Assembly: GCA_964437335.1 (NCBI GenBank)
Contig: CAYTGL010000011.1
Location: forward strand, 6,990 to 70,989
DNA from: an uncultured Chromatiales bacterium
Lineage (GTDB): Bacteria; Pseudomonadota; Gammaproteobacteria; SZUA-140
Length of the DNA: 64,000 bases
Direction of reading: 5' to 3'
The notes below the pieces were generated by a model. The model had not been told where the DNA came from, searched no databases, and worked only from the letters and a program-made list of their open reading frames with translations. Shown here one piece after another: positions 6,478-59,783 of this stretch. The position numbers and the translations under genes are program-made. Each line of letters opens with the position of its first letter. Position 1 is the first letter of the stretch.

Positions 6478-6487
6478 GATCTAGCTC

Positions 6488-10452: not shown

Positions 10453-10472
10453 CGGTGATTCGATTTAGGCTC

Positions 10473-14036: not shown

Positions 14037-14047
14037 CGCCCCTGCTC

Positions 14048-30081: not shown

Positions 30082-31425
30082 TTATTGGCCAATCGGTCGA
30101 TTCTTAAGGAGGAATAGTTTTTGCTTCCAATACTTGAATAAGTCAGTTGTGCTCGGATCAGGAAGAGGGAGTTTCTTTCGGGATGCTACTGGAAACCCCT
30201 TTGCCACGTCAGCAATTAATCGCCTCCGAAGTTGTTCGGGTAGTGATTGGAATATGCCTCTGACCAATTCGATCTCATTGTTCTCGACCAATACGTCGAG
30301 ATGTTTAATAAGCAAGTTGTTTCGGCCTCTCTCCATCATAAGGCGAGCAGCCGTAACGAAAGCGCCGACTAATGCTGATGGAGGTTTGTTTGGACCAACA
30401 GGATCAAGGGGCTGTAATTTCCGATATTTCTTGAAGCGTGACATAAGTCCGTGCATATCGTCGTCCACGCTTGCGAAGTCTCGCTCTTCTTGGACCTCCC
30501 GCACTTCTTCTATAGAGCTATCTTTAACATCGGATTTGAGATAGGTTCGTGCAAATTCTAAGAAGCGTTGGCCGTGGTATAATAAGAAGTCTGACTTTGA
30601 TGTCTTCGCAACGTCACCCACCATTTGCCATGCGGGGCCAATTGTTCTCTGGCCGACCTTCCACCACCAATCATCGTTCTTAGTTTCATTGGTGACAAGT
30701 ATTATCGGCTGTCCATTCAAGGTTGCCGCCTGATTCAAAGTCTGTTTCCATAGCAGCCAATCGCCATGTTTTTCGTCGTGCGGTTTGCCTTGGTCTTGGG
30801 TTCCGGGTGGAATACCTTTGTCGATACGCTTTTTTCCTTCATCGAGCATTGTAGTTCGCTCGTCCTCAGACGGCTCCTTGCCAATCTTGCCATCGAATAA
30901 GCTACACACCTGAGCAAAGACCTCATCCTTACAGGGATCGGTGGTCAAGGCGGTCTTGGTTTCCTCCAGTTTTTGCAACTGTTGCTTAGCAGTATCCTTT
31001 AGCGGCTCTGTAATATCTTCAATCTGGATCAGTGGGTGCCGACGCTTGTCGATTAGTTGCCAGAGTGTGTTGTGGAAATTGTCGCATTCAGTTAGAAGTT
31101 TGTCCGTATATGTTTTGAAAAGTTTGTGTTGATCTAACAGAACGCCGACTCGGTTCTTTGCGAACTCGTAGGCGACTTGATGGGGAATCCAAAGGTGCTT
31201 CTTGAGCGACTCCAGAATGCCAAGAACATCGTGTCGGGTTTCAGGTGAGTAACGATACAAATCAAGAAGGAAGCTGGTGTCAAAAACGAAAAGTGCTTCC
31301 TTCCAGATTTCCGCCTTTCGCTCATCGGGGACCGGCATGAACTGCGGAAAAAGTTTGTCGAGCATTGCAACCCCGTCGAAGTTAATTGGCATGGTCACGT
31401 TTTTGCGAGCGGACCTCGCATACAA
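30082..31425 (-). CDS. PIN-like domain protein (DUF4935-like)
   Basis: N-terminal ALFVFDTSFLLDLYRY motif typical of PIN-like DUF4935; true start may be the internal Met MPINFDG or MLDKLF. Confidence 0.55.
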   Translation of the reverse strand: MYARSARKNVTMPINFDGVAMLDKLFPQFMPVPDERKAEIWKEALFVFDTSFLLDLYRYSPETRHDVLGILESLKKHLWIPHQVAYEFAKNRVGVLLDQHKLFKTYTDKLLTECDNFHNTLWQLIDKRRHPLIQIEDITEPLKDTAKQQLQKLEETKTALTTDPCKDEVFAQVCSLFDGKIGKEPSEDERTTMLDEGKKRIDKGIPPGTQDQGKPHDEKHGDWLLWKQTLNQAATLNGQPIILVTNETKNDDWWWKVGQRTIGPAWQMVGDVAKTSKSDFLLYHGQRFLEFARTYLKSDVKDSSIEEVREVQEERDFASVDDDMHGLMSRFKKYRKLQPLDPVGPNKPPSALVGAFVTAARLMMERGRNNLLIKHLDVLVENNEIELVRGIFQSLPEQLRRRLIADVAKGFPVASRKKLPLPDPSTTDLFKYWKQKLFLLKNRPIGQ

Positions 31426-36971: not shown

Positions 36972-37414
36972 TTGTTGCTCGTCTTCAGTTCGTTTGCACT
37001 GGCTTTGAATTTGTCGCCGGCGACAGGTTGCCATCAGTTTCGGCAGTTGCGCTCGAATCTAACCCCCGCTCCCTGCGTAAACATACGGTAACTTCAAGAT
37101 GCGTCTGTGATAACTGCCACTGGTGGTGCGATTTGGTTATTCCCATCGCTCGCCCCCTCCGGGGCGAGCGATCTTGCCTTACTCAGCCCCAACAAAGTTC
37201 CCACCAAGTGCAACCCCACTCACACCAAGCCCAGCGACGTTCCCAGCCAGGTGTAACTTCTACCAACCAAGATGCAACGGGCTTTCCCAAGGGGTTGTAC
37301 CGAGTCGGCCACTTCCAAGCTTTCCACAAGATCAAATCAAACCGACCCATCCCAATCGGCGAAAATCCACGATTCATGTCTTCGGGATCATTCCCCCAAC
37401 GAAGTCCGATCCTA

Positions 37415-37430
37415 GTCAATTTGTACCTTT
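37415..37430 (+). promoter_or_regulatory. Copy 1 of the repeated motif (AGTCAATTTGTACCTTT), ~30 nt upstream of the RuvB-like gene
   Basis: Shares the TTTGTACCTT core with six other sites in 41.5..44.6 kb. Confidence 0.45.
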
Positions 37431-37463: not shown

Positions 37464-38420
37464 ATGTCGGAACCGAACGATTTTCGCCCCAATGCCCTGA
37501 GCCACCTGGTTGGACAGGAACACGTTCGCCAGGTTGTCAGCACCGCACTCGATTACAGCTTCCAAGAGCAAGTTTCCTTCCCGCACGCTTTGGCACTCGG
37601 TCCACCAGGCGTCGGCAAGACGGCTATGGCCAGGGTGATCTCCCAAGAACTTGCGTCGGGATTCCACGAATGCCTGGCTTCAGCGATCACATCTCCAGCT
37701 GAATTTTTCGCTGTGCTGATGCGTGCCAAGGATCTGGACGTCGTGTTTTTTGACGAACTTCACGTTTTGGACCCGGCCTACCAACACGCACTTCTGATTG
37801 CGACGGACGAAGGAAAGATCTTCTTGCCGAATAGCAATGGCGGTGCCCCTCAAGCAATCAACTTGGCAAAATTTTCCCTCATAGCGGCCACGACAGACGA
37901 ACACAAAGTTATTCGCCCTCTGGTCGATCGGTTCAAGCTCATCTTGCGTTTCTCTTATTACACCAAAGTGGAGTTGGCCGAGATTGTTCGCACCCGAGCC
38001 AAGGGACTTGGCTGGCAGATTAAGAGTGATGTCGCTGATCCGATCGCTGAACGAAGCAAAGGCGTTCCACGCCTGGCAATTCGTCTGTTGCAAAGCTGCT
38101 GGCGTGTATGTCGTGCAGGTGGCGACCACACCATCACCCGCAAACACTTGGAACGAGCGTGCGCTCTGGAACAGATCGACGCCAATGGGCTCGACGCAAC
38201 TGAGCAGCAGTACCTGGTGTTGCTTGCAAACGGCCCGCTGAGATTGAACGTGCTGTCCAGCATCCTCGGTCTTCCCGCCCGAACGGTTTCCCACGTCACC
38301 GAGTCGTTCCTGATCCGCAGCGGCCTGGTTACCAAAGATAAGAACGGCATGCGGATGCTTACTGCCAAAGGAATGGAGCACCTGGGAGCGTCACATTCCG
38401 GTAAGGATGGTGGCAAATGA
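37464..38420 (+). CDS. RuvB-like AAA+ ATPase (divergent Holliday-junction helicase homolog)
   Basis: FRPNALSHLVGQEHVRQVV (RuvB N-terminal pattern), Walker A GPPGVGKTAMAR, Walker B VVFFDELH, sensor and winged-helix-like C-terminus; divergent from canonical RuvB; 4-bp overlap with the next gene. Confidence 0.65.
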   Translation: MSEPNDFRPNALSHLVGQEHVRQVVSTALDYSFQEQVSFPHALALGPPGVGKTAMARVISQELASGFHECLASAITSPAEFFAVLMRAKDLDVVFFDELHVLDPAYQHALLIATDEGKIFLPNSNGGAPQAINLAKFSLIAATTDEHKVIRPLVDRFKLILRFSYYTKVELAEIVRTRAKGLGWQIKSDVADPIAERSKGVPRLAIRLLQSCWRVCRAGGDHTITRKHLERACALEQIDANGLDATEQQYLVLLANGPLRLNVLSSILGLPARTVSHVTESFLIRSGLVTKDKNGMRMLTAKGMEHLGASHSGKDGGK

Positions 38421-38896
38421 CCGACAACAAGCCGTCGCAATCGTATCTATCTTGTACGGACGTCGCTCGTCGCCTGGGCCTGAGTCGCCAGCGTTTCTGG
38501 CAGCTTCGGCGTGATGGCATTTTCCCTCAGCCTTTGGTTGATGAAGAAACAGGGCGGCAGTTCTACACGCAGGAACAACTCGATTTGTGTTTGGATCTGC
38601 GCAAAAGAAACGTCGGCATGAATGGTAGAGTCGTTTTGTTCTATTCAGTTCGGCCAACAGCAACGATGCCCAAGCCCACAAAGAAGAAGCCGTTGTCGAA
38701 GCCGACGACGGGACAGCACCAGGCGATCATCGAATCGTTGAAAGCACTTGGCCTGGTCGGCGTCATCGATGCTCAGGTGGAGACGACGATCAAGCAACTG
38801 TACCCTGCGGGGACAAGCCGCCCAGATCACGGTGAACTTGTGCGGAACATTTTCCTGCACATACAGCGAAACAATTCCAGCAATAACGTCAAGTGA
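38417..38896 (+). CDS. Excisionase/AlpA-like HTH protein
   Basis: LSCTDVARRLGLSRQRFWQLRRDGIFPQP is an HTH_17-type motif; immediately upstream of the tyrosine recombinase. Confidence 0.6.
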   Translation: MTDNKPSQSYLSCTDVARRLGLSRQRFWQLRRDGIFPQPLVDEETGRQFYTQEQLDLCLDLRKRNVGMNGRVVLFYSVRPTATMPKPTKKKPLSKPTTGQHQAIIESLKALGLVGVIDAQVETTIKQLYPAGTSRPDHGELVRNIFLHIQRNNSSNNVK

Positions 38897-38938: not shown

Positions 38939-39877
38939 ATGGTGTCACATTCACGTCCCGAAGGCCGCAAGAATTCGGGCGATAATGTTTTCGGCGGTGT
39001 GCCAGTTGGTCAGGAAGAGGCATCTCTCCTCAGCCAGTTTCTGTCGGCGCAGGACTTGGCCGAAAACAGTCGCCGTGCAGTCATCAATGATGTGCGGAAG
39101 TTTACCAGATGGTTTGCCGAGGCAAACCATGAGCCGTTCACAGTCGGCCGTGTCACCACTCGTGACATTGCCGACTTTCGGGATCACCTGCGCCGCAAGC
39201 AGGATCAAGCCGTCGCCACAGTCAACCGTGCCTTGATGTCGATTCGCCGCTACTTTGGCTGGTTGGTTGAGCAGGGTCACCTTCATGCCAATCCCGCAAA
39301 GGCAGTCAAAGAGCTGCGAACCGTGGAACTTTCGCCCAAGGGGATGGATCGTGCGGCGGTGCGACGACTGCTCCGTGAGATCGAGCTTCGGCAGGACGTA
39401 CGGGCCAACGCCATTTTCCACCTGCTGCTCTACACTGGCTGCCGCTGTGGCGATCTCGTGAACCTTGACATGGCCGACCTCCTTGTGAGCGACCGCAGCG
39501 GTTCAGTGGTCTACAGATTCGGTAAAGGCAACAAGCAGCGATCGGTGCCGTTGCCCGTTCCTGCCCGTCGAGCATTAGCGACCTACCTGGAAACTCGGCC
39601 GCCTTCGGAAAGTCAGCGGATCTTCATCGGCGAACGAGGTCCACTCGGCGAGCGGGGAATTCGAGCGTTGTGCGACAAATACTCAGCTCTGATCGGCGTG
39701 AAAATCCACCCACACCTACTGCGGCACACGATGGCCCACGGCTATTTGGATGCCAACCCTGGTGACCTCGTCGGGCTTGCCCAACTACTTGGCCACAGCA
39801 ACTTGAACACGACCGCACGATACACAAAGAAGAGCCAGGAAGAGTTGCGGGCGGCAGCGGAGAAGGTTGAGTATTGA
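38939..39877 (+). CDS. Tyrosine site-specific recombinase (XerC/D-type integrase)
   Basis: Core-binding N-terminal domain plus catalytic box [38 protein letters not shown] (R..H..R..Y). Confidence 0.85.
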
Positions 39878-39981: not shown

Positions 39982-41487
39982 CTAGCGTTCGTTTTGCTCC
40001 TGGTTGGGATCTTGTGGTTCATAGTTTAGAAGAAAATCGACTGGTTGCATTCCGGCTCCAATCCCAACATCGAATTGCTCTGGGTGCTGTAGTGCTTGAA
40101 CAGCCCTATTAAGCAAGGCGAAACAAATATTTGATCGCTCGATCATCATTGCTCGCACCTCTCCAGGATCGAGTTCTAGGTCGTCGTTTACCTTGTTCAC
40201 AACCGATGCCGCAAACTGATGGGCGTGTTTGAAGCACATTGAAGCAAAAAATGGAAATGGCACGAGTGTCGTGTACTTCGTAATTGTCTCGATCATTCGC
40301 AGAAGGATATCGTCCACAGGATCTATCGGAAGATTTATGTCAGCAACGTCGGGCAATTCATTGTATTGCTGCTCAAGAAGCAACACTTTAAGTGACAGTT
40401 CCGTTGCCAATTGCCGCCGATCTAAAGCGACCTCCCTGGCTGCTACATCCCGCCCAATTTGGTGTAGCGTTTGCTCCAGCTCATAAGCATGCGCTTGCTC
40501 ACGCCCTGCTGCTTCGTGGCGCTTTACCACACTCGGATCTGCATTTCGAATACTGCGTTGATGCTCAGCAAGAAAGTGCAACGCACTAATTCGAGCCTGG
40601 GCTGCGAGAGCCTGGTCTGAACGACTTTGTGCGTCCGCTGTGCGGGACAGTTCACGACGAGTCATAGACATCTCGTCTCTTTGCAACGCAAGCTCCTTCC
40701 CTTGGAGTAAAATTGAGTAGATCGCACCAGCGACCGCTAGTGCTGATAACAGAGAGCTTGCAAAACCAAATGTGTCGCCCAAACTTCCTGTAAGACCAAG
40801 AAAATCACCAAGGGACATTTTGATCGGAAATTGACCACCAGCGGTGCCATTGCCGTGCTTAGACTTCTCGAAGAGGCGATCCGCTAGAGGCTGCTCACCT
40901 GACGTAAAGAACCACATACCTAAAACAACTAACGTAAAACACAGCAGCCAAACTATGGGTACTCCGATGAGAAGGGATCGAAAGCTAAGTAGCGGGGGAG
41001 CAATCTTGTGATCATCATTCTCCTGGACGTTCTTGATTATTGCCTTGGCTCGTTCATGGATGGGGGCGGCCTCCATTGTCGCCGTTAATTGACCTAATGT
41101 TAGAGCGAGAGAGGTGGCGTGTGACGTATTGTCGATTTCTTTTCGAAGCGCATGTGCGGCTCTTAGTGCTTCATTGCGGTTTGCCCCGTTGGGCATTGCG
41201 TCAAGGTCCGAAATCAGTGAATCGACGGACTCTAATGCACTTTTCTCTCGACGAGTCAGGGCCAACATAACTGCCAGCACTACCAAGATAGTCGCCAAGA
41301 CGAGCGTGGCCCAAAAAGGGATCGCCGTTGCCAATACCATTCCAGCAATGCCGCTCAAAAGTGCGGCAATTGCTTTCGACTTTGTAAGATTCAATGTAAC
41401 CGCCTTTGAGTGTAGTCTCTGCACTGGAGCTGAAAGCGTATGCCAACAAGCCGAGACATTTTTGCGCAGTCCTAGTTTCGCCTCCAA
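39982..41487 (-). CDS. Membrane protein, unknown function (501 aa)
   Basis: Several hydrophobic helices and a coiled-coil-like central region; low GC. Confidence 0.5.
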   Translation of the reverse strand: MEAKLGLRKNVSACWHTLSAPVQRLHSKAVTLNLTKSKAIAALLSGIAGMVLATAIPFWATLVLATILVVLAVMLALTRREKSALESVDSLISDLDAMPNGANRNEALRAAHALRKEIDNTSHATSLALTLGQLTATMEAAPIHERAKAIIKNVQENDDHKIAPPLLSFRSLLIGVPIVWLLCFTLVVLGMWFFTSGEQPLADRLFEKSKHGNGTAGGQFPIKMSLGDFLGLTGSLGDTFGFASSLLSALAVAGAIYSILLQGKELALQRDEMSMTRRELSRTADAQSRSDQALAAQARISALHFLAEHQRSIRNADPSVVKRHEAAGREQAHAYELEQTLHQIGRDVAAREVALDRRQLATELSLKVLLLEQQYNELPDVADINLPIDPVDDILLRMIETITKYTTLVPFPFFASMCFKHAHQFAASVVNKVNDDLELDPGEVRAMMIERSNICFALLNRAVQALQHPEQFDVGIGAGMQPVDFLLNYEPQDPNQEQNER

Positions 41488-41497
41488 CCAATCATCT

Positions 41498-41513
41498 GGT
41501 TACCTTGTACCTT
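41498..41513 (+). promoter_or_regulatory. Motif copy 2 (GGTTACCTTGTACCTT) upstream of the DUF932 gene
   Basis: About 60 nt upstream of the start at 41572. Confidence 0.45.
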
Positions 41514-41571
41514 CCCAGTGCGAGCCGCTCAACGGTAGCGGCAAACGCAAAATGCACTAGGGAGACTTACG

Positions 41572-42552
41572 ATGCCAGCTGAAATTTCCTTCGTCAATGG
41601 AAAAGCTGAAGCCGCCTTCGCCTTGAAGCCAGCGTGGTGGGACGCTGCAAACCGTTGCACGCTCGACCACGTGCCCGACTCGGCAGGGATGATTCGGGCC
41701 GCACATTTGAACTGGGAGGTTCAACCGCAACCGATCTACAACGCCGACGGCCGAATCATCGAAGGGTATAGCACGACGGTTCGCTTGGACACGGGTTTGC
41801 ACCTTGGCGTGATGTCCGATCAATATCGTGTCGTTCAGAACGCCGAGGGTTTCCGTTTTCTCGACAACTTGCTGCGAGATGGCGTCATGCGGTACGAGTC
41901 GGCTGGTGCCTTGCGTGGCGGCCGCACCGTGTGGGCCTTAGCTCGAATGCCTTCGGTGGACACGATCGCTGAAGGCGACGACGTGTGCCGCTACTGCTTA
42001 TGGCTGAATTCGCACGACGGCACGGGCGCAATCTACGCCATCCCCACCAGCGTGCGAGTGGTTTGTGCAAATACAGCCGCCTTGGCAATCCGTGGCCAGC
42101 GTGGGATTAAACACATGGGCGACATGGACGCCAAGCTGAAGCAGGCGCATGAACTGCTCAGCCAAGCCGACCGCCAATTCACCGACTTTAGGGATAATGC
42201 CCAACTGCTTGCCAACCGCCGATATAGCCCAGTTGATGCCAAGCAGTACGTTGCAACCTTGTTGCCAGAACCAGAAGAGGCAGGCCGTTCGCTTTCGATC
42301 CGTGAACGCAAGGTCGAAGAAATCCGCATCGCACTCCGTAGCGATCGGCAAAATATCGCATCGATCCAAGGCACCTGGTGGAGCCTTTACAACGCCGTCT
42401 CTGAGGGAATCGACCACGGCCGTTTCTACGGGTTCAAAGGCAAAGGCCAACAACGGGCCGAAAACCGTATGACTTCCGTCATGATGGGCCAGGGGGCGGA
42501 ATTCAAACGCCAGGCTTTCGATCTGGCCGTATCGATGGCGCAGGCTTCGTAG
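41572..42552 (+). CDS. DUF932-family protein (phage/plasmid-associated)
   Basis: Conserved WLNSHDGTGA block and overall length ~326 aa typical of DUF932. Confidence 0.65.
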   Translation: MPAEISFVNGKAEAAFALKPAWWDAANRCTLDHVPDSAGMIRAAHLNWEVQPQPIYNADGRIIEGYSTTVRLDTGLHLGVMSDQYRVVQNAEGFRFLDNLLRDGVMRYESAGALRGGRTVWALARMPSVDTIAEGDDVCRYCLWLNSHDGTGAIYAIPTSVRVVCANTAALAIRGQRGIKHMGDMDAKLKQAHELLSQADRQFTDFRDNAQLLANRRYSPVDAKQYVATLLPEPEEAGRSLSIRERKVEEIRIALRSDRQNIASIQGTWWSLYNAVSEGIDHGRFYGFKGKGQQRAENRMTSVMMGQGAEFKRQAFDLAVSMAQAS

Positions 42553-42565
42553 CATCTTCACTTCC

Positions 42566-42590
42566 CGCCCACCCGGCTCCCGCCGGGTGG
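42566..42590 (+). terminator. GC-rich hairpin after the DUF932 gene
   Basis: cccacccggc tcccg ccgggtggg followed by ctttgtc. Confidence 0.5.
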
Positions 42591-42652
42591 GCTTTGTCAA
42601 ACGCATACAGCAAGAGCCGCCGGCCATTGGCCGGCGGCTTCGTCTTTCTCAA

Positions 42653-42670
42653 GTAGTTGATTTGTACCTT
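42653..42670 (+). promoter_or_regulatory. Motif copy 3 (GTAGTTGATTTGTACCTT), preceded by hairpin 42614..42638
   Basis: Hairpin gccgccggcc attg gccggcggc, then the motif, then the small ORF at 42705. Confidence 0.5.
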
Positions 42671-42704
42671 TGACGGCTGCGATCTACAGCTCGACCGAGT
42701 CCAA

Positions 42705-42905
42705 ATGGAGTCATTCACCATGTCGATAGATGACGGCCCAAACCGCACTTTTCGCAATCACTACATGTGCCCCATTTGCGAACACGAATGGTCAGACGAG
42801 TTGACTGCCACTTGTGATGACGATTGCCCAAGATGCGGCACACGACACATTTCGCCTTTCGATAGTGAGGAAATTGCGGACGATGGTTCGTCGGTGATCG
42901 ATTGA
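42705..42905 (+). CDS. Small zinc-ribbon protein (66 aa)
   Basis: CPICEHEW ... CDDDCPRCGTRH (two CxxC pairs); start at MESFTM after ggag. Confidence 0.5.
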   Translation: MESFTMSIDDGPNRTFRNHYMCPICEHEWSDELTATCDDDCPRCGTRHISPFDSEEIADDGSSVID

Positions 42906-42961
42906 ATTGTCGGCATTTGATAACACCCGCCCTCATAAGGGGCGGGCTTCGTCGTTCGCAG

Positions 42962-42979
42962 GTAGTTGATTTGTACCTT
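42962..42979 (+). promoter_or_regulatory. Motif copy 4 (GTAGTTGATTTGTACCTT), preceded by hairpin 42925..42947
   Basis: Hairpin cccgccc tcataa ggggcggg. Confidence 0.5.
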
Positions 42980-43026
42980 CCCAAAGCGAGTCACACACTC
43001 ATCAACACTCGCACAGGGAAAACCAA

Positions 43027-43446
43027 ATGATCTTTTCAGTCATCTATTCCGTGGATTGCCCCGCCGACGAAAACATCAACAACTTCGCCCCGCCCGACCT
43101 GGTTTTGTGGGACCAAACAGAGGGCGACGACCAATACGAGTACGACTATCTCGAAGGCAGCTGGGAATACGGGCATCACCGAAAATGGGCTGCCCTCCTC
43201 AATCGAGAGCAATTCGACCAATTCATCGCTCGATGTAACCTTATCGCCGAAAACATCCAAACGATGGGTTCTCTGGGAGCCCCTGGTTTTGATTTCGGCT
43301 GGGCACCAGCACTTTCATTCAATGGCCACGACCCTTGTGCCATTCAGAACGCATACGTCACTCCAATCCCCGAAGTTGAACGAGAAACCTGCGACGAACG
43401 GGATTGGCAGCGTGTGCGTAGTGCCATGCTGGCGGTGTACGGGTAA
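43027..43446 (+). CDS. Hypothetical acidic protein (139 aa)
   Basis: ORF begins ~50 nt after motif copy 4. Confidence 0.5.
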   Translation: MIFSVIYSVDCPADENINNFAPPDLVLWDQTEGDDQYEYDYLEGSWEYGHHRKWAALLNREQFDQFIARCNLIAENIQTMGSLGAPGFDFGWAPALSFNGHDPCAIQNAYVTPIPEVERETCDERDWQRVRSAMLAVYG

Positions 43447-43512
43447 TGTTCTTCGTTCTGCCTGGTTCAGCAAGGCCCGCCCCCGCAAGGGGGCGGGCTC
43501 GGTTATATCGAG

Positions 43513-43530
43513 GTAGTTGCTTTGTACCTT
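43513..43530 (+). promoter_or_regulatory. Motif copy 5 (GTAGTTGCTTTGTACCTT), preceded by hairpin 43475..43499
   Basis: Hairpin gcccgccccc gcaa gggggcgggc. Confidence 0.5.
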
Positions 43531-43580
43531 CGTGGGCAAACGTAACCACCAAGCCAACTGCAACGAGGGGGAGAACAACT

Positions 43581-43790
43581 ATGACCGAAGACCAGGCCCG
43601 ATCAGCACTCGCCGAACTGTTGGGACGGTACACAATCGGCAGCGTGCTCCACTTGCTGGCAGACGTTCAACGAGAGCACGCTGATGAAGCACGGCTCATT
43701 GATGATGCCGCAGCGTACGAGCAACTCAAAATGATCGAGCACACGCTGTTCGTCGTGGGCCTTGGCGTCGATGCCGCAAATCCATCGTAA
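43581..43790 (+). CDS. Hypothetical small protein (69 aa)
   Basis: Start MTEDQARSAL preceded by a gagggggag RBS. Confidence 0.5.
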   Translation: MTEDQARSALAELLGRYTIGSVLHLLADVQREHADEARLIDDAAAYEQLKMIEHTLFVVGLGVDAANPS

Positions 43791-43820
43791 CTCAGTCAAT
43801 TCAACTACGGAGCAACCGAC

Positions 43821-44096
43821 ATGCCGATATTCCAGATCGAACAGTATGAACTGCACACTATGAAGTATCGTGTTGAGGCTGTCACGGAAGCCGAGGCAAT
43901 CAAGCGATTGCTGGACGGCGAAGCCGAAGCAGTCGAAAGCAGCTTTGACTTCATCGAAACCGCCGATGATTTCGGTTTGCCTGTCGATGAGAATCGTGAC
44001 CTTGCCGAAGAATTGCGAGCATTGGACGTGGAGATCGGCGACCACGTGATCCCATCGATTCGATCCATCGAACAGGTTGATGAGCAGCAGCCTTAG
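43821..44096 (+). CDS. Hypothetical small acidic protein (91 aa)
   Basis: ORF MPIFQIEQYELHTMKYRVEAVTEAEAIKRLLDGEAE...; followed by hairpin 44116..44135. Confidence 0.45.
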   Translation: MPIFQIEQYELHTMKYRVEAVTEAEAIKRLLDGEAEAVESSFDFIETADDFGLPVDENRDLAEELRALDVEIGDHVIPSIRSIEQVDEQQP

Positions 44097-44153
44097 CGGC
44101 CGTTGTCAGCTAACCGCACCGTCGTTTGACGGTGCGACGTAGCTCTGCTTGTT

Positions 44154-44170
44154 CAGTTACCTTGTACATT
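44154..44170 (+). promoter_or_regulatory. Motif copy 6 (CAGTTACCTTGTACATT), preceded by hairpin 44116..44135
   Basis: Hairpin gcaccgtc gtttgac ggtgc. Confidence 0.45.
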
Positions 44171-44207
44171 GTAAGTGCGACCCCTCACCCCACAAAGGAG
44201 AACAAAA

Positions 44208-44495
44208 TTGGTCGCACCAGCAACACCACGTTTTCGCCTCGGCACAGCCGTTGCCACGCCAGGGGCACTGGCAACCCTTGAAGAAGCAGGCCAGACACCA
44301 GCCGAACTACTGGATCGCCACATTCGTGGCGATTGGGGAGACCTGGACGAAGAAGACAAGCAAGCGAATGAGGACGCCCTGAAGCACGGGGCACGAATCC
44401 TTTCGGCCTACCTGCTGTCCAGCGGCGAAAAGATCTGGGTGATCACCGAGGCAGATCGCAGCAGTACGTGTTTGCTGCGGCCCGACGAGTATTGA
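44208..44495 (+). CDS. Hypothetical protein (~95 aa; probable TTG start after an aaggag RBS; ORF-track Met at 44175 is the alternative)
   Basis: caaaggagaacaaaa TTG GTC GCA ...; conserved-looking C-terminal block RGDWGDLDEEDKQANEDAL ... IWVITEADRSSTCLLRPDEY. Confidence 0.45.
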   Translation: MVAPATPRFRLGTAVATPGALATLEEAGQTPAELLDRHIRGDWGDLDEEDKQANEDALKHGARILSAYLLSSGEKIWVITEADRSSTCLLRPDEY

Positions 44496-44553
44496 CCTAT
44501 TGGTCTTCATGAGCAAAACCCGACCCACGGAGTGGGTCGGGTGGCAAGGCGAC

Positions 44554-44569
44554 AGTTACTTTGTACCTT
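44554..44569 (+). promoter_or_regulatory. Motif copy 7 (CAGTTACTTTGTACCTT), preceded by hairpin 44517..44541; no ORF follows
   Basis: Hairpin cccgacccac ggag tgggtcggg; downstream lies hairpin gtctggga gttgg tcccagac (44596..44617) and no convincing + strand ORF. Confidence 0.4.
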
Positions 44570-44704
44570 GTGTTGCAAAATTGAAAATCAAACAACTCTT
44601 TTCGAAAAAGTCTGGGAGTTGGTCCCAGACTGGCCTGTCCTGGCAGATAACGCTGCCCATTTTTTTTCATGGGGCTTCGATGCGAGCCGACGAGTGGCTT
44701 TCTT

Positions 44705-48238: not shown

Positions 48239-48414
48239 TGCCGTGCCCTTACATTCCAATGTGGATGGTTTGCTACCGCTGGCCGAAGGCGAGCGGACAA
48301 GCGTTCGCTGTAACAACGACGCCCGACAAGCGACAATTATACGTCTCGACACACACTTTTGTACATTTTTTTCGCAGCTCTCCCTGACCGATCCAGACAC
48401 GGGAGACTGCGCCG

Positions 48415-48795
48415 ATGGCTAAGCAAAAACCAAAGATCCAACACGCTGAGATCGTGCAGCACTTTGCCGCAAAACTGCGGGAATTGCGGCATTCTCGTGG
48501 GATGACCCAAGCGGAACTGGCTGGCCAGGCCAAGGTCACCGTGAGTTACGTGGCTCGATTGGAAGCAGCAGGGGCGGCACCTGGCATCGATTTGGTGGGC
48601 CGATTGGCCGATGCCCTGGGGACGACGGTCGGCGAGTTGCTGCCAACCATGGCCGCCTATGACGAGATCACCACCCTTCGTGACCGAGCGAGAAAACTCG
48701 CCGACCAGCTCATCTCTGGGGCGGATCGAGAGACACTGCTAATGATTTGCCCGTTGTTGGCCCGATTGGGCGAATCACCGACGAGACGGCGTTAG
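48415..48795 (+). CDS. XRE-family HTH transcriptional regulator
   Basis: LRELRHSRGMTQAELAGQAKVTVSYVARLE is the classic HTH_3/XRE pattern. Confidence 0.7.
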   Translation: MAKQKPKIQHAEIVQHFAAKLRELRHSRGMTQAELAGQAKVTVSYVARLEAAGAAPGIDLVGRLADALGTTVGELLPTMAAYDEITTLRDRARKLADQLISGADRETLLMICPLLARLGESPTRRR

Positions 48796-49106: not shown

Positions 49107-50924
49107 TCAATCAGTCTGATCAATTTCATTTTCTCGATGCCGATAGACGCTCATTTTCGAGCAACCCACCTTTTCGGCGATCTCGGCGGGCGACATTCCT
49201 CCTTTTGATAGTCGGCGGATTTGCTTGATCTGTCGAATGTTGAGGCCACCACCTCCCAGCTTTCGCTCCACCGGAAATGGATCGTCAGGGGTGGCGTCGA
49301 AGACCGGTTTGAGCTTTTCTTGCAGCCATTGGAGAGCCCTGAAGACGTTTCCAAACGGCTTGTTCGTGTAGCACTCGATCAGGCTCTTGCTGCCCAGCGG
49401 AGATCCGTGTCCAAGAAAGATTTCTGAGATCTCGCCTCCAAACTCTTCACGTATCCAATTGGAAGCTGTGTCACGCAACGCCTCTTGGGGCAGTCGTGGA
49501 AACTCAGGCTCAGCGGTCTCGACACGGTCGAGAAGCCGATTCCACATATTTGTTAATTGATGATTTGGATTCCCGCCCTTGGTCGGCTTTGTGAATGAGT
49601 GCCCAGCTTCATTGAGCAGTGCGATGGACGTGGAACGAAATGGAATCTCACCTGTGGTTCCGTCTGCTCTCTTGACGAGTGTTCGCTTGCGTCGTCGATC
49701 GAGTACCCACTCCATGCCCTGAACGGTCAGAGGCCAAAGCAGCCATTCGGCGTATACCTCGGTCTTTGTCCTGATCCGCCGCACGAATGAATCGTCCTCG
49801 GTGAAGTCAAAAGCAATATACTGCGCATATGGGTGCTTTTGACGTAGCGTAATCTCGCCCACCCGCAACGTGGCACATTCCATTCGCTTGAAACCGAGAT
49901 TCAAGCCGCAGAGCAACAAAAACCGCTCAAATGGAACGGCGAACTCATTAAGCGTCTTGAGTTGTTCGACGGTGTAAGTGCGGACTTGCTGGGACGGAGC
50001 AGTTACAGGTGCAGACTTGTCTTTGTTCGACTTTCGGATCGCTAACTTCAACTCATCGAAATCGGTCGGCTTTTTCCAGTCGAAACGATCTGATTTTGAG
50101 AGCCAGCGCATGAATTCCTTGATTCGCTTGGCGTGCTCACGGCAAGTTTTGACAGCAAGCGGACCCGTGCCGTCTTTACGAGCTGGTCTCTGTCTCCAAA
50201 CCTCAATCATCGCATCGCAGCCATCGAAAGTCAGCTTGGACAGCGGCCAATTCAGTTGGTGGGCATTGAAAGACCGTATTCGCTCAAGTGCCGCCAGGTA
50301 CTTCTGCGCTGTATCGCTCAGACGCTTCTCGGTGAGACCTTCCTCTGGATCAGGGTCAACCAACATTCGAACTCGAATGTGATCGTTTTCATAGGCATCC
50401 AGTGCCTCCTTAACCGTAGCTTCTGTGGGATCATGTCCATTCGAAGCTTGAGCGAAGAACCGCACTTCCTCCATGAGGCCCTCTGAAATGGATGCAACCT
50501 CCTGCGACCCCAATTCGTATGCGTCCTCATCTTCGGGCGCAAAGTGGACGAAGGGAAAAATGTTGCGCCACTTTTCAAGAGTCGTGACGTAGTCGAACCG
50601 ATGCCCCATATGGGGTTCGCCCGATGGACGTGTAATCATGTCCATCGGAATTCGGACGCTTGACTCCCCTTGCTCGAATGCTTTGGCGATGTACAGGGTA
50701 AGCTCGTTCCACTCCGAGTCGCCGAGCGTTTCTACGGCGTAATCCCAAAGCTCCTGGATTCGCTGTTTTCGACGCTCCGATTCCCGCTCATTGGTTGTGA
50801 AGCGGAACTTATGGCCGTCCACCTTCCCGCTCTTCGTAGCCTTTCGTCCTAGCTTGGCGCAATAGCGGCCCGTGGCTTTATCTCGACTCAGCGCCGTTCT
50901 TCGAGACTTGCTGCGTGTAGACAT
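49107..50924 (-). CDS. Large tyrosine integrase (phage-integrase family) with C-terminal HTH
   Basis: Catalytic region ...LRDTASNWIREEFGG...FLGHGSP...YTNKP (R/H/Y residues); C-terminal MSPAEIAEKVGCSKMSVYRH HTH; immediately 3' of the tmRNA gene. Confidence 0.75.
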   Translation of the reverse strand: MSTRSKSRRTALSRDKATGRYCAKLGRKATKSGKVDGHKFRFTTNERESERRKQRIQELWDYAVETLGDSEWNELTLYIAKAFEQGESSVRIPMDMITRPSGEPHMGHRFDYVTTLEKWRNIFPFVHFAPEDEDAYELGSQEVASISEGLMEEVRFFAQASNGHDPTEATVKEALDAYENDHIRVRMLVDPDPEEGLTEKRLSDTAQKYLAALERIRSFNAHQLNWPLSKLTFDGCDAMIEVWRQRPARKDGTGPLAVKTCREHAKRIKEFMRWLSKSDRFDWKKPTDFDELKLAIRKSNKDKSAPVTAPSQQVRTYTVEQLKTLNEFAVPFERFLLLCGLNLGFKRMECATLRVGEITLRQKHPYAQYIAFDFTEDDSFVRRIRTKTEVYAEWLLWPLTVQGMEWVLDRRRKRTLVKRADGTTGEIPFRSTSIALLNEAGHSFTKPTKGGNPNHQLTNMWNRLLDRVETAEPEFPRLPQEALRDTASNWIREEFGGEISEIFLGHGSPLGSKSLIECYTNKPFGNVFRALQWLQEKLKPVFDATPDDPFPVERKLGGGGLNIRQIKQIRRLSKGGMSPAEIAEKVGCSKMSVYRHRENEIDQTD

Positions 50925-51152: not shown

Positions 51153-51159
51153 CATTGGA

Positions 51160-51520
51160 TGGAGGCGGCGGGAATCGAACCCGCGTCCCGCGATATTTCA
51201 ATAACAGCCTCTACGCGCGTAGTCGAACTCATTTAAGGTTTCGCCGTTCCACCCCCTGTCGACCGGGTGTTGGATTGGCTAGCCGGGGACGGCTTTTTAG
51301 CCCGGGGCGTTCCCAGCGGTGACCCCAGGCGAGTCGAATTTGACGGCCGGCTTTTGGGTCTCTTCGACGAAGACCCGCAGTCGGGGTTGCCGTTACTAGG
51401 CAGCCAGTGCGAGATTATTCTCGGCAAGTAAAATCGTAGTCAGCTTTTTACGTGGCCAACTGACCAACCACGGCACGCCACTGATACATCAGGCTATCCG
51501 GTCGATACCAGTTCGCCCCC
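51160..51520 (-). ncRNA. ssrA: tmRNA (SsrA), ~361 nt
   Basis: 5' end GGGGGCGAACUGGUAUCGACCGGAU (tmRNA 5' consensus). 3' end GGACGCGGGUUCGAUUCCCGCCGCCUCCA (T-arm plus acceptor). Acceptor stem pairs with G3:U70. Internal tag reading frame GCC GAG AAU AAU CUC GCA CUG GCU GCC UAG UAA gives AENNLALAA**. CCA is not encoded. Confidence 0.85.
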
Positions 51521-51682
51521 TTTACCTTAAGAATAGATGCAACCGCGCTGACGCGCGATCCGTAACCGACCAACTACCTACGCTTAGCCGCGGCGGCTTT
51601 TCGCAAAAATCCGCCCTCGGCCTCCAAAATTCTAATCCCCACGGCTCACAAGGGAAGGGCACGACGGCCTTTCCCAAACAGC

Positions 51683-52563: not shown

Positions 52564-53367
52564 ATGATTAAGAAGTTTCTAGGATCGGCCGCGTTGCTGC
52601 TGCTGATCGATGGCGTGGTGTTCGGCTTCGGCGGAACGCGGTGGACCTACGACTCGGCCCGCACGGCGCTGGGCATGGGCCGCGATTCCATCCGGCAAAA
52701 TATGCCGATCGGGTTCGAAATCGAACGGGCCAAGCAACAGTTGGCCGATGTTCGCCCCATGATCACCAACCATAAGCACCGGATGCTCGAAGAAGAGGCA
52801 CAACTGGCCATCCTCGATCGCCAGATCACGGCCCAAGAGAAGAAGCTCACCGAAGATCGCGGTGAAATCCTGATTCTCAAGAACGACCTCACCTCGGGCA
52901 AAGAGTCGTTCCGCTACGGCGGCCGGATCTACACCGTGTCCGACGTCAAGCAAGACATGACCCGCCGCTTCGATCGGCTCAAAACCAACGAGGCCACGGT
53001 GGAAAAAATGCGGCAAACGCGCACGGCGCGCGAGCGGCGGTTGGCGGCCCTGCAAGATAAGGTGGCGGCCATGGAAGCCTCCGTCCGGCAGATGGATGCC
53101 GAAGTCGGCAATCTCGAAGCCCAATTGCAACTCGTCGAAGCAGCCGAGGCGGGATGCGAGTATAATTTGGACGATAGCCCGCTCAGCCGACTCAAATCCC
53201 TCATGGCCGATCTCCAAACCCGCGTGGAAGTTCGGGCACGGATGGCCGACAGCGAGGTCGACGCTTATCAAGAGATCCCGGTCGGGGCGAGCCATTCCGA
53301 CAGCATTGTGGACGAAGTCACTCAATACTTCGAAAACAACCACGGTCAGGTTGTGCTCTCGAATTAG
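52564..53367 (+). CDS. Membrane-anchored coiled-coil protein
   Basis: N-terminal TM (FLGSAALLLLIDGVVFGF), then long heptad-rich region; start at the second Met of ORF 52537. Confidence 0.55.
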   Translation: MIKKFLGSAALLLLIDGVVFGFGGTRWTYDSARTALGMGRDSIRQNMPIGFEIERAKQQLADVRPMITNHKHRMLEEEAQLAILDRQITAQEKKLTEDRGEILILKNDLTSGKESFRYGGRIYTVSDVKQDMTRRFDRLKTNEATVEKMRQTRTARERRLAALQDKVAAMEASVRQMDAEVGNLEAQLQLVEAAEAGCEYNLDDSPLSRLKSLMADLQTRVEVRARMADSEVDAYQEIPVGASHSDSIVDEVTQYFENNHGQVVLSN

Positions 53368-53542
53368 ATCGACCCACAAGTACCAAAGTATCGAACGCAA
53401 AGGCACGATCACGCCAGGCAACCGCAGCGATTGGGGTTGTCTGGCGTGTGAAGCCATCCGCGGTTTGGGGGCTGGACGGCGGCCGCGGAGAGGCAATTTC
53501 GCTGGTCCACAGGTCACACGGTTTTCCGCTGGCACGAGATCG

Positions 53543-55147
53543 ATGATGCTCCAGTCTTGGCGAATCAAGATCAAAGAAGTCGAAGCCGCCATGCAAGCGC
53601 AGCGGCTCGATGAAGCCCAAGCGTTGCTGCAGGAGGGCGATCTGATCAGCTTTGCGCCCGCCAAGCGTTTGCTCTCCAAGCTGGGCAAGTTGTTCATTAA
53701 ACGCGGCAGCGAGCAAACCCGGTTGGGCAACACCGCCGCCGGTTGGCACGACCTGCGGGCTGCCCGGCAGGCCGGCGCGTTGCCCAAGCAACTGCAACCC
53801 TTGCAAGAGGCGCTGGCCCAACGCTCGCTAACCGAAGCCAATGCCGCCTTGGCCGCGTTGAATATCGATGCGGCTGCCGAAGCGGTGCGCCTGTTGGATC
53901 GTCGGGGCGTCGACAGTGAGCCGTTTCGGCAGTTGAAGCAAGTCGTGGGGCTCTTGGAGTCCGCTCGCGGACAGATCGAATGCGGCCGATTCGGGGCTGC
54001 CGCCGGCGCGGTGGAAACCGCGGCCCGCCTGCGGAGCGATTTAGCCTCGCTCACCAGGTGGCGATGGCAAATTCAAAAAGATTTGCAGGCCTGGCAGGCG
54101 TTGCGCGGGCAACTTTTTGTCGCCTGGGAGAAAGCCGATTGGGCCGGGGTACTAATTCCGGCCGACCAAATGCTGGCCATGGCGCCCCGCGAGGCCCACA
54201 CCTTGCAAATGCGAAATCACGCGTGGGATCGGCTGAAAAGTCACTCGCCAACCGCCACTTACCCTGTGCATGGTTTTCCGCAAATTGCCGCGGCCGAATC
54301 GCACCAGCAGCCCAACTCCAAACCAAACATGCGCAGCGCCCATCAACCACCAAACCAGCGAGGCCTATTCAACGACCGTGGCCCAAACGGCCATCTCTTG
54401 AATGGCAACGGCGGCCTCCCCCGTTCACCGCGGATTCAACCCGACCTGGGGCAAATTCGCCTCGCCTCGGTGGGCGCCCGGCGTTCGTTGTCGGCCGCGG
54501 CCTCGCCAGCCGCGCCGGAGAAACCGCCAGCGGGCAAGCGGTTCGTGATTTGGGTCGATGGCGTCGGCGGGTTTCTCGTGTGCGAGGGGAACGAAGTCAC
54601 GCTGGGCCAGCCCGTGGCCGGTGTCGATATTCCCATCCTGGCCGACCTGTCCCGCCAGCACGCCGTGATTCGCCGTTCGGGCGAAGGCTACCTGCTCGAT
54701 CCCCGCCGCGAGGCCCGTGTCAACGGCCGCCAGGTCAGCGCCGTAACCATGCTCGGCAGCGGCAGCGAGCTAAGATTGGGGGCGGGCGTCACCTTGCGAT
54801 TCAGCCGGCCCAATTCGCTCAGTCACAGCGCGCGGCTCGATTTTGTCAGCCGGCATCGCACCCAGCCAGCCGTCGATGGCGTGCTGTTGATGGCCGATTG
54901 CCTGATTCTGGGCGCAGGGCCGAATTGCCATGTGCATTGTCCGCGCTGGCCGCGGCAAGTGATGCTGTTTTACCAGCAAGGCCAATTGTGCTGCCGTAGC
55001 GAGGGGCCTTTGGAAATTGACGGGAAGTTGCTCGCCCCAGGGAAAAACGGCGGTTGCCAAACCGTTATTCATCGCGGGGCTCGCATTGAAACAGACGCCT
55101 TCGCGTTGGTTCTGGAGGAATTGGCCGACCTGCCGGCGGGTTCTTGA
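53543..55147 (+). CDS. FHA-domain protein
   Basis: FVIWVDGVGGFLVCEGNEVTLGQ...DIPILADLSRQHAVIRRSGEGYLLDPRREARVNGRQV is an FHA fold signature; start taken at MMLQSW (the upstream part of ORF 53096 overlaps the previous gene out of frame). Confidence 0.65.
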   Translation: MMLQSWRIKIKEVEAAMQAQRLDEAQALLQEGDLISFAPAKRLLSKLGKLFIKRGSEQTRLGNTAAGWHDLRAARQAGALPKQLQPLQEALAQRSLTEANAALAALNIDAAAEAVRLLDRRGVDSEPFRQLKQVVGLLESARGQIECGRFGAAAGAVETAARLRSDLASLTRWRWQIQKDLQAWQALRGQLFVAWEKADWAGVLIPADQMLAMAPREAHTLQMRNHAWDRLKSHSPTATYPVHGFPQIAAAESHQQPNSKPNMRSAHQPPNQRGLFNDRGPNGHLLNGNGGLPRSPRIQPDLGQIRLASVGARRSLSAAASPAAPEKPPAGKRFVIWVDGVGGFLVCEGNEVTLGQPVAGVDIPILADLSRQHAVIRRSGEGYLLDPRREARVNGRQVSAVTMLGSGSELRLGAGVTLRFSRPNSLSHSARLDFVSRHRTQPAVDGVLLMADCLILGAGPNCHVHCPRWPRQVMLFYQQGQLCCRSEGPLEIDGKLLAPGKNGGCQTVIHRGARIETDAFALVLEELADLPAGS

Positions 55148-55171
55148 ATGCCGTAGCGGTCTCGATAGAGA

Positions 55172-57286: not shown

Positions 57287-57333
57287 AATCGAGGATTAAT
57301 GAACTTCCCGATGATTTCGTCATTCCCGCGCGA

Positions 57334-57372
57334 ACCTCGTCATTCCCGCGAAGGCGGGAATCCAGACGCGGC
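57334..57372. repeat. Short palindromic element GTCATTCCCGCGAAGGCGGGAATCCAG (ATTCCC-N8-GGGAAT), with a half copy just upstream
   Basis: Same core recurs at ~58958..59023 (two cores), 60375..60402 and 62877..62904. Confidence 0.6.
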
Positions 57373-57504
57373 GGATACGACACTTCAATCACCATCGGCC
57401 CGGATCGTGATTGATGAATCGGCACGTTATTCATCGTCGCCTACCTACCCTTTAAGAGTCCATTACGCCCGAGCATCATTTGCCCGAGCATAAGGAACAC
57501 TGAG

Positions 57505-58932: not shown

Positions 58933-58957
58933 AATTGACCCGTGCGGCCGCGAAGGC

Positions 58958-59023
58958 GGGAGTTTGTCATTCCCGCGAAGCCTGCCCTCGTGAAGACGGG
59001 GGGCGGGAATCCAGGGCGGCGGA
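58958..59023. repeat. Two adjacent copies of the ATTCCCGCGAAG-type palindromic element
   Basis: gtcattcccgcgaagcctgccctcgtgaagacggggggcgggaatccag. Confidence 0.55.
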
Positions 59024-59144: not shown

Positions 59145-59783
59145 ATGGCTCTTAGCGAATATGATCGCGTGTTGATTGGTCGCATTCGCCAGTCCCAAGA
59201 CGAAGCGTGGGATGAAATGATTGCCCGCTTCGAAGGCCGGCTGCTGGCGTTTGTCGATAGCCGCCTTCATAACCGGGCAGCCGCCGAAGACGTGGTGCAA
59301 GAAACCTTCATTGGGTTCCTGACCAGCCTCCCCAACTACGACGAGCGGCGTCCGTTGGAAAGCTGGCTGTTCAGCATCGCGGCCCACAAGCTCACCGATC
59401 ACCTGCGCCGCGAAGGCCGCCGGCCGCGCGTGCCCCTCGTGGCCCAAGGCTCAAGCAACGCCAGTAGCTGGGACGTGCCCGGCGCCGCCCGCGGCGCCAG
59501 CAGCATTTTGCGCAGCGGCGAGCGGCAACGGTTGGAGCGCGACGCGCTCACCACGGCCATGGCTGAAATCCTCGACCACTGGCGCAGCCGAGGCGACTGG
59601 GAAAAGGTGCGCTGCCTGGAACTGCTGCTCGTCCGCGGTTGGGCCAACAAAGACGCCGCCACCCAACTAGGGCTCACCGAGCAAGTGGTGGCCAACTACA
59701 AGTTCGACTTCCTCTCCAAGCTGCGCACGGCAGTTCGCAAGCAAGGGCTGAACCACGACGTGTTCCCGGAGCTCAAACCTTAG
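59145..59783 (+). CDS. ECF-family RNA polymerase sigma factor
   Basis: Region 2 (VVQETFIGFL, SWLFSIAAHKLTDHLRR) and region 4 HTH (VRGWANKDAATQLGLTEQVVANYKFDFLSKLR). Confidence 0.8.
   Translation: MALSEYDRVLIGRIRQSQDEAWDEMIARFEGRLLAFVDSRLHNRAAAEDVVQETFIGFLTSLPNYDERRPLESWLFSIAAHKLTDHLRREGRRPRVPLVAQGSSNASSWDVPGAARGASSILRSGERQRLERDALTTAMAEILDHWRSRGDWEKVRCLELLLVRGWANKDAATQLGLTEQVVANYKFDFLSKLRTAVRKQGLNHDVFPELKP

Follow-up and report, generated by a model that had tools for sequence, protein, structure and literature searches.

The gene module and its repeated box

We analysed a 64-kb stretch of DNA (contig CAYTGL010000011.1, positions 6,990 to 70,989 of the forward strand; hereafter the window) in which a short motif, here called the box, recurs upstream of the genes of a region (the island) that reads as part of a mobile element. 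Seven copies of the box (m1 to m7) lie on the + strand within 7.2 kb of the window, with none elsewhere in it and none on the - strand. In order, they lead the gene of a RuvB-like ATPase (m1), a DUF932 gene (m2), and open reading frames (ORFs) of 61 amino acids (aa) (m3), 139 aa (m4), 69 plus 91 aa (m5) and 95 aa (m6), while m7 has no ORF. The features of this module, in window coordinates, are as follows (HTH, helix-turn-helix; pI, isoelectric point; nt, nucleotides):

37413-37430, + strand: box m1 (TAGTCAATTTGTACCTTT), 34 nt upstream of the RuvB-like/HTH/recombinase operon
37464-38420, + strand: RuvB-like AAA+ ATPase with RuvB_N, AAA_lid_4 and RuvB_C winged-helix domains, below the RuvB equivalog cut-off
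38417-38896, + strand: basic protein of 159 aa whose N-terminal part is a MerR/excisionase-type winged HTH, by profile comparison
38939-39877, + strand: XerC/D-like tyrosine recombinase (a serine resolvase instead in the sister elements L003 and L004)
39982-41394, - strand: 470-aa membrane protein of unknown function, in a variable cargo position, without box
41497-41514, + strand: box m2 (TGGTTACCTTGTACCTTC), 58 nt upstream of DUF932
41572-42552, + strand: DUF932/TIGR03299 phage/plasmid-like protein, by family match
42567-42592 and 42614-42640, + strand: two tandem GC hairpins, terminators of DUF932, by folding
42654-42671, + strand: box m3, preceding cassette 1
42720-42905, + strand: cassette 1, 61-aa acidic zinc-ribbon protein, pI 4.2
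42926-42946, + strand: terminator hairpin of cassette 1
42963-42980, + strand: box m4, preceding cassette 2
43027-43446, + strand: cassette 2, 139-aa acidic protein p139, pI 4.2, net charge -15
43475-43498, + strand: terminator hairpin of cassette 2
43514-43531, + strand: box m5, preceding cassette 3
43581-44096, + strand: cassette 3, bicistronic, with p69 (43581-43790) and p91 (43821-44096), both acidic
44115-44136, + strand: terminator hairpin of cassette 3
44154-44171, + strand: box m6 (CAGTTACCTTGTACATTG), with one core mismatch, preceding cassette 4
44208-44495, + strand: cassette 4, 95-aa p95 with a TTG start, the hallmark small gene of every sister element
44519-44541, + strand: terminator hairpin of cassette 4
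44553-44570, + strand: box m7 (CAGTTACTTTGTACCTTG), the top-scoring copy, terminal and without ORF behind it
44571-44667, + strand: conserved A/T-rich non-coding block (TGTTGCAAAATT…AATCAAACAACT) following m7

The box has the form YAGT-N4-TTGTACCTT, and the window copies read (T/C)AGTT(G/A)(A/C)(T/C)TTGTACCTT. A search with the pattern AGTTRMYTTGTACCTT, allowing up to two mismatches, gave seven matches against 0.09 expected, a number reached by no shuffle, with starts on the + strand at 37414, 41498, 42655, 42964, 43515, 44155 and 44554. The 9-mer core TTGTACCTT occurs 6 times (0.14 expected), and GTACCTT is found 8 times on the + strand, 6 of these inside the island, and 0 times on the - strand. 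The seven copies had been recognised in an initial annotation of the window and are confirmed by this search; the consensus written there (…TTTGTACCTT after three variable bases) carries one T too many and has 0 matches. Its description of five ORFs, each behind a hairpin and the motif, holds for four box-led units that together comprise the five ORFs; the 91-aa ORF begins 30 nt after the 69-aa ORF with neither box nor hairpin of its own, and m7 is not followed by an ORF. The distance from the end of GTACCTT to the start codon is 34-58 nt in the window leaders, and a GGAG-type Shine-Dalgarno sequence stands before every ORF.

The hairpins are perfect GC stems of 8-12 bp with short loops and U-rich tails (z-scores down to -6.7; stability down to -54 kcal/mol for the pair after DUF932). 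Their 3' ends lie 11-17 nt before boxes m3 to m7, and none precedes m1 or m2. Since it is m1 and m2, the two boxes without a co-directional gene upstream, that lack them, we take the hairpins to be terminators of the preceding gene and not, as had been supposed, one half of a hairpin-plus-motif signal.

Occurrence of the box in sister elements

The DUF932 protein has close homologs at 60-83% identity in Planctomycetes, and the loci compared were those of Rosistilla oblonga (L003), Bremerella sp. P1 (L004), three metagenome contigs (L005-L007) and Gimesia maris (L214). They share one plan: an optional XRE gene, the RuvB-like ATPase (present in all of them), an HTH protein of ~150 aa, a tyrosine or serine recombinase, variable cargo, DUF932 and a run of up to ~10 small ORFs that ends with the p95 homolog, often with ArdC. 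A 22-nt position weight matrix (PWM) was built from 18 sites and applied at a threshold of at least 14 bits to the seven elements, that is, these six and the window. It gave 53 hits, all within the 59 kb of element spans, against ~1.2 in block shuffles. The six sister elements, from two host orders, carry 4-11 boxes each, and the box is common to Rosistilla, Bremerella and Gimesia. There were 0 hits in the 115.5 kb of flanks around the seven elements and 0 in 628 kb of 87 other loci; together with the other 57 kb of the window, which has none either, this speaks against the genome-wide housekeeping promoter that the initial annotation had named as its refutation.

In the first six elements all 48 of 48 hits are intergenic and in the same orientation as the next gene, and a start codon follows at 22-63 nt in 32 of 47. 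L004-L007 and L214 have a back-to-back divergent pair of boxes in the bidirectional gap upstream of DUF932. Upstream of the p95 orthologs conservation is limited to the box and the Shine-Dalgarno sequence. The logo reads C-A-G-T-K-R-C-Y-Y-T-G-T-A-C-C-T-T-G, with 12 near-invariant positions and a weaker GGC(A/G)AA 4-9 nt downstream; upstream of the box it contains no -35-like signal. From these comparisons the elements appear to form a family of uncharacterised planctomycete integrative elements, with the box as its signature.

Loci that share single genes with the family lack the box. This is so for loci with DUF932 only (the phage contigs L008 and L009, and L010) and for those with p95 or p139 only (80 metagenome loci, Symmachiella, Thermoguttaceae). 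Among GTDB representatives the DUF932 query found one Bacteroidetes match at 33% identity, without box; the search of viral contigs with CAGTNNCNNTGTACCTTG gave background-level singletons and no arrays among the matches listed; and the search of a plasmid collection with the RuvB-like protein returned true ruvB genes only, at ~33% identity. A literature search found nothing on this motif or element, and DUF932 is uncharacterised.

Every element ends in the same way: a last, best-scoring box follows p95, with no ORF beyond. The block behind this terminal box is conserved in all seven elements as CTGTYRCAAART-N4-AATCAAACAAYT, and in the window it closes with a hairpin and a T8 run (44642-44667). 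The consensus folding energy of the block (-2.4 kcal/mol) is not convincing as RNA structure. The block is a candidate for a small non-coding transcript or a cis-acting site. Some copies contain an integration host factor (IHF)-like WATCAA core.

Two further observations concern individual loci. At L007:2086-2562, four boxes stand in tandem at intervals of 126-181 nt, uninterrupted by ORFs, ahead of a RuvB-like gene that an insertion sequence (rve transposase) has split. The DUF932 homologs of L008 and L009 (56-59% identity) are situated in the early regions of apparent tailed-phage genomes with capsid, portal and tail genes, which suggests that the DUF932 module of the element has a link to phages.

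A second form of the box

One related element, L144, has no PWM hit at all. It encodes homologs of the RuvB-like ATPase (49% identity), the 150-aa protein (43%), the recombinase (63%) and p95 (55%), and it carries a box of its own, YAGCGGATACCCTCCAA, in 8 + strand copies and 1 divergent - strand copy, each followed at 40-60 nt by an ATG that has a GGAG site. The sole part common to the two boxes is TACCYT, which would fit the T-A-n-n-n-T skeleton of a -10 hexamer. Judged by this comparison the architecture is kept in L144 while the box sequence differs, and two box variants in an identical architecture make the question of what reads the box experimentally tractable.

A possible third form was seen in L197:130-14320 (metagenome contig Ga0366819_10073). 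Here GGACACC, a heptamer, has 68 copies on one strand and a single copy on the opposite strand, roughly one per 210 bp. Some copies fall within ORFs; others stand 20-55 nt before many of the ATGs in a series of small ORFs read in one direction, p95 and p91 homologs among them. The L144 box variant upstream of the RuvB-like gene (TAGCGGACACCTGTC) also contains GGACACC. The heptamer could be a polar, Chi-like motif or a further box lineage.

The box as a probable element-specific promoter

Its co-orientation with the next gene, its fixed distance to the start codon, its position after terminators, the divergent pairs, and its conservation while the leader drifts are all behaviour expected of a promoter. 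From these sequence features we infer that the box is probably the promoter, or a combined promoter and operator, of a coordinated regulon. The shared promoter or operator proposed in the initial annotation thus gains in scope, the box standing before every + strand unit of the module; because it also heads the recombinase operon (m1) and DUF932 (m2), the whole element appears to be wired as one regulon. A scan with the sigma-70 consensus found 1 site in 10 kb and none in the gaps between terminator and box, and since the terminator stems end so close to the box there is no room for another promoter.

In the mechanism that we propose, each + strand unit (the RuvB-like/HTH/recombinase operon, DUF932, four cassettes and one non-coding terminal unit) would be transcribed from its own box. 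A cassette consists of the box, a leader of ~25-45 nt with the Shine-Dalgarno sequence, an ORF and a terminator, and strong intrinsic terminators insulate the small-gene units from one another. Host RNA polymerase would start ~7 nt downstream of the TACCTT hexamer, which is -10-like (T-A-n-n-n-T) and would act with no -35 element, and the invariant upstream extension (CAGT…TG) would provide specificity via a dedicated factor, either encoded by the element or conserved in the host. Such a reader is implied by the 12 positions that are near-invariant across two host orders, together with the absence of the box from the host flanks. All units would then be switched on together, for example upon entry, excision or induction, and the box is possibly also a regulatory target of the element family.

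Several points weigh against this interpretation. TACCTT is a poor match to TATAAT (3 of 6 positions), and the TG abuts the hexamer, outside the canonical register of an extended -10. In about one third of cases the distance from the box to the next annotated start exceeds 63 nt. The training set accounts for 18 of the 53 PWM sites, and specificity was judged on flanks and other loci, so that a small host regulon with the same box may exist. The 150-aa HTH protein, universal in the family, is weakened as a candidate reader: the same putative recognition helix (GLSRQRF[W/Y]QL) recurs in L144 despite its different box, and in L003 and L004, which have the box of the window, the protein is only 29-36% identical. 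Our confidence in any specific reader is low.

That the box is purely an operator seems to us unlikely. It would then be a 'stoperator' silencing the integrated element through binding of, for example, the XRE or the 150-aa HTH protein, and transcription would start from unrelated promoters close by, of weak sequence conservation. The stoperators of mycobacteriophage L5 are multi-copy, asymmetric, transcription-oriented repressor sites of this kind. So are the ArdK direct repeats of plasmid R388 (PMC9723621). XRE genes occur in the window and in L003-L005, and one possible reading of the box, as xxCYTTG·TACCTTG, makes it a degenerate heptamer in tandem, which would suit head-to-tail binding. 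Against this, the interval between terminator and Shine-Dalgarno sequence offers no other conserved sequence to serve as promoter, the gap between terminator and box is only 11-17 nt, and XRE was not found in the fetched DNA of L006 or L007. The two functions do not exclude each other, and all data agree with a box that serves as promoter and operator at once. Quite improbable, in our judgement, is a host-regulon promoter adopted by the element, belonging to an alternative or extracytoplasmic function (ECF) sigma factor or to a stress regulator conserved in Planctomycetia. The identical box in two host orders despite diverged DNA-binding proteins of the element would favour it, as would the ECF sigma factor encoded in the window (59145-59783), the many ECF sigma factors of Planctomycetes, and the other box of L144, which may reflect another host lineage; yet the 115.5 kb of host flanks contain 0 boxes, and with 18 nt and no separate -35 the box is too compact for the -35/-10 layout of ECF promoters. 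A sigma-54 promoter was rejected: where a TGGC occurs, its distance to TTGC exceeds the required spacing by one base, GG is missing from 7 of 7 window copies, and the translation of the RuvB-like ATPase contains no GAFTGA motif.

Very little speaks for hairpin and box as a recombination site of the attC type, at which the recombinase would capture or shuffle cassettes. The array is modular, the sister elements differ by the presence or absence of whole cassettes, and the nearby tyrosine recombinase has a weak integron-integrase match; this match (TIGR02249) reaches only 54 bits against a cut-off of 265, however, compared with 164 for XerC, and in L003 and L004 a serine resolvase accompanies the same box. 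Core genes, too, have boxes, and these come with no hairpin (m1, m2); the stems, perfectly paired, GC-rich and with U-rich tails, are unlike imperfect attC repeats, the cassettes are collinear across elements and unshuffled, and integron cassettes are promoterless. Scarcely credible, finally, is a box that acts in RNA, as a processing, RNA-binding or antitermination site in the leader of read-through transcripts. Strict strand specificity and, if transcription came from upstream, a 5'-leader position would agree with such a role, which requires read-through of very stable terminators (to -54 kcal/mol, with two hairpins after DUF932); m1, m2 and the divergent pairs have no co-directional transcript upstream, and neither conserved RNA structure nor an Rfam match was found at the box or the terminal block.

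Returning to the promoter interpretation, a bolder form of it is conceivable, which we consider doubtful: an element-encoded factor would direct host RNA polymerase to the 18-nt box that lacks a -35 element, and the box would have diversified between sublineages into orthogonal, portable promoter/factor pairs. Of the box forms, CAGT…TGTACCTTG would belong to the window family and AGCGGATACCCTCC to L144, with the GGACACC core of L197 as a possible third. A candidate for the factor, by analogy with late transcription in phage T4, is the RuvB-like AAA+ ATPase acting together with a small DNA-binding partner; another is one of the conserved unknown small proteins. If true, the terminal box and its block would encode a regulatory small RNA or mark an origin of transfer or replication.

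Planctomycetes have few genetic tools, and the mobile elements and promoters of this phylum are poorly known. The elements described here would define an undescribed mobile-element family in Planctomycetes, for which the box is a simple signature for finding members, and a compact promoter of ~25 nt with matching strong terminators would be of direct use in genetic tools for the phylum.

Comparison with known systems

The design resembles plasmid establishment regulons, but neither the box nor the element family nor the small proteins have been described before. The nearest known counterparts are the ArdK/KorA-type establishment regulon of plasmids and, more loosely, the anti-defence islands of leading regions. 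In R388, five establishment promoters, PardC among them, are each overlapped by a common repeat, through which ArdK represses them (PMC9723621), and R388 ArdC was shown experimentally to overcome type I restriction in the recipient (PMC7213743). The ArdK regulon of IncW/IncN plasmids (R388, pKM101) also consists of separate, mostly small establishment units, ardC among them, with a common promoter repeat; these genes respond together and are presumed to act early after entry into a new host (PMC9723621; PMC7213743). The R388 operator is a TTGACA direct repeat over a normal sigma-70 -35, bound by a 102-aa repressor of the KorA family; here the box covers the -10-like TACCTT and an upstream extension, canonical promoters and -35 elements are absent from the box regions, and the cassettes are insulated by terminators. 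The element is moreover a planctomycete one, integrated in the chromosome and with no conjugation genes in view, and none of the 19 island proteins belongs to the KorA/ArdK family (Pfam, NCBIfam), their HTH domains being of the MerR/excisionase-like and XRE types. A combined promoter and operator, as in the ArdK regulon, would fit all data.

The Frpo anti-defence islands (Samuel et al. 2024, PMC11541004) are alike in having one-directional, small, mostly uncharacterised genes near anti-restriction genes, with special promoters; Frpo are long hairpins of single-stranded DNA that mimic -35/-10 duplexes (PMC11541004). An Frpo/ssi promoter was rejected for the box: on folding, the intergenic regions yield no more than the short GC stems of terminators; the box is not part of these stems, and they form no promoter mimic. 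Domains of relaxases, type IV coupling proteins (T4CP) or type IV secretion systems (T4SS) are absent from the window proteins scanned and from the sister-locus annotations, and neither transfer nor packaging genes were found between the BREX (bacteriophage exclusion) genes described below and the island. Unlike in leading regions, no relaxase and no recognisable origin of transfer (oriT) marks a leading end here, so that the leading region of a conjugative element, to which the initial annotation had likened the array, is retained as an analogy only.

Phages provide further parallels. The stoperators of cluster A mycobacteriophages (L5/Bxb1) are an asymmetric motif of the 13-bp class, present in tens of copies in one orientation and lineage-specific; they are repressor sites within long operons that block elongation. 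The start-associated sequences of cluster K phages stand immediately beside start codons. Both resemble the box in being asymmetric repeated motifs of short intergenic gaps, in one orientation and in one element lineage, whereas the box follows a terminator and has a promoter-like position 35-60 nt before the start codon. T4 late promoters consist of a -10 only (TATAAATA), which gp55 recognises together with an AAA+ clamp-loader/clamp activator. Promoters of the T7 class are likewise phage-specified. In common with these, a contiguous, lineage-specific box without -35 is found here before many genes, and the element encodes an AAA+ ATPase; no gene for a sigma-like or gp55-like protein or a single-subunit RNA polymerase was detected in the element. 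The best match of the RuvB-like ATPase is RuvB, its best PHROG matches are clamp-loader families, and this resemblance to clamp loaders is generic AAA+ similarity. Integron arrays, too, have modular small ORFs, hairpin-containing repeats, a tyrosine recombinase and variation in cassette presence. An integron cassette array was nevertheless rejected: XerC/XerD are the best models for the recombinase, attC-type repeats are absent, and each cassette has its own box instead of a single Pc.

The small proteins

All five small products are acidic (pI 4.1-4.7, net charge -7 to -17), and none matched Pfam, NCBIfam, PADLOC, a PHROG-annotated family or a known anti-defence family. The 95-aa protein, p95, whose TTG start is also called in the public assembly, has at least 7,994 homologs at E<=1e-5 and occurs at more than 545 metagenome loci, as an unannotated family without Pfam domain. 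Its AlphaFold2 model is of high confidence (predicted local distance difference test, pLDDT, 92.7) and shows weak fold similarity to RelE/ParE; the invariant residues include VATPGA, DWG and EADR. For p139 there are ~410 homologs at 65-79% identity and a model with pLDDT 78, with neither a Pfam domain nor a fold match in the PDB; the search with the models of p139 and p95, the two proteins modelled, gave no significant PDB fold match for either. Both proteins are strongly conserved (65-79% identity over hundreds to thousands of homologs) and their gene order is fixed: the cassettes are collinear across the elements (p139 < p69 < p91 < p95), the window array being a shortened version of those in L005 and L006. 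The 61-aa zinc-ribbon protein of cassette 1 has no homolog in the sister loci.

ArdC (ArdcN plus MPTase-PolyVal) is encoded within or adjoining the arrays of L003, L004, L005, L006 and L214, and in L003 and L004 it belongs to box-driven units; the window array contains no known anti-defence gene. Given this context we think it most likely that the small acidic proteins serve as accessory factors of the establishment or anti-defence type, an assignment in which we place low confidence. The idea of anti-defence rests on their acidity, their location in a mobile-element region and the ArdC genes in box-driven units of the sisters, and strong conservation with fixed gene order would fit a core life-cycle function equally well. 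For the candidate anti-restriction role that the initial annotation gave to these ORFs the sister elements provide context, while none of the proteins matched an anti-defence family or fold already known. Its more specific proposal of anti-BREX factors finds no evidence, the BREX genes lying 22 kb away. Through the arrays, large uncharacterised families of small proteins (p95, p139) that share a regulon with ArdC become candidates for a role in establishment or anti-defence.

Other genes and features of the window

Outside the box-led module the following features bear on the element or its surroundings:

692-15210, - strand: complete type I BREX system (BrxA, BrxB, BrxC, PglX, PglZ, BrxL)
48351-48368, + strand: degenerate half-box (…TTTTGTACATTT, without CAGT), ~46 nt upstream of the XRE gene, of uncertain membership
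48415-48795, + strand: XRE-family HTH gene, with the half-box upstream
49107-50924, - strand: protein of 605 aa, at 233 nt from the tmRNA 3' end, whose only match is a C-terminal HTH_7/HTH_23
51157-51520: transfer-messenger RNA (tmRNA) gene, by Rfam scan

With the tyrosine recombinase, DUF932/TIGR03299, the excisionase-like HTH proteins, XRE and the adjacent tmRNA, the initial annotation's view of a mobile-element region is borne out by gene content. The best profile match of the 159-aa protein is a MerR/CueR-type winged HTH (E 0.011), with AlpA/excisionase types lower, and the protein is a candidate regulator or recombination directionality factor. The island also has a - strand block encoding an HTH-like 152-aa protein, a GYF_2 protein and three unknowns. 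A search for att repeats between the tmRNA 3' end and the left side of the island gave chance-level matches only, no tRNA or tmRNA lies within 21 kb of the sister loci, and the Rfam scan of 36-52 kb (E up to 1) found nothing but the tmRNA.

The 605-aa protein has no PDB or NCBIfam match. A homolog at 27% identity occupies the same relative position in L003, both facing the XRE gene, and in L004 a large serine recombinase stands in this position, likewise facing XRE; the 605-aa protein may be an unrecognised recombinase. On the - strand at 51573-51590, ~55 nt upstream of the tmRNA, lies GGTAGTTGGTCGGTTACGG, whose first 8 nt equal those of boxes m4 and m5 (GGTAGTTG); its PWM score is under the threshold and the likeness is probably due to chance.

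In the BREX locus, two unassigned small ORFs (5345-6477) are inserted between PglX and PglZ, and beyond it are genes for a UvrD-like helicase (24404-26416) and a PIN_8 protein (30082-31425). Together these suggest a defence island, and the interval from BREX to the element island is made up of defence-island-like and host genes. On the other side, the region 53000-59000 has a GC content of 0.62-0.65 against ~0.54 elsewhere, and a Ser/Thr kinase (55172-57286) and the ECF sigma factor mentioned above are encoded here.

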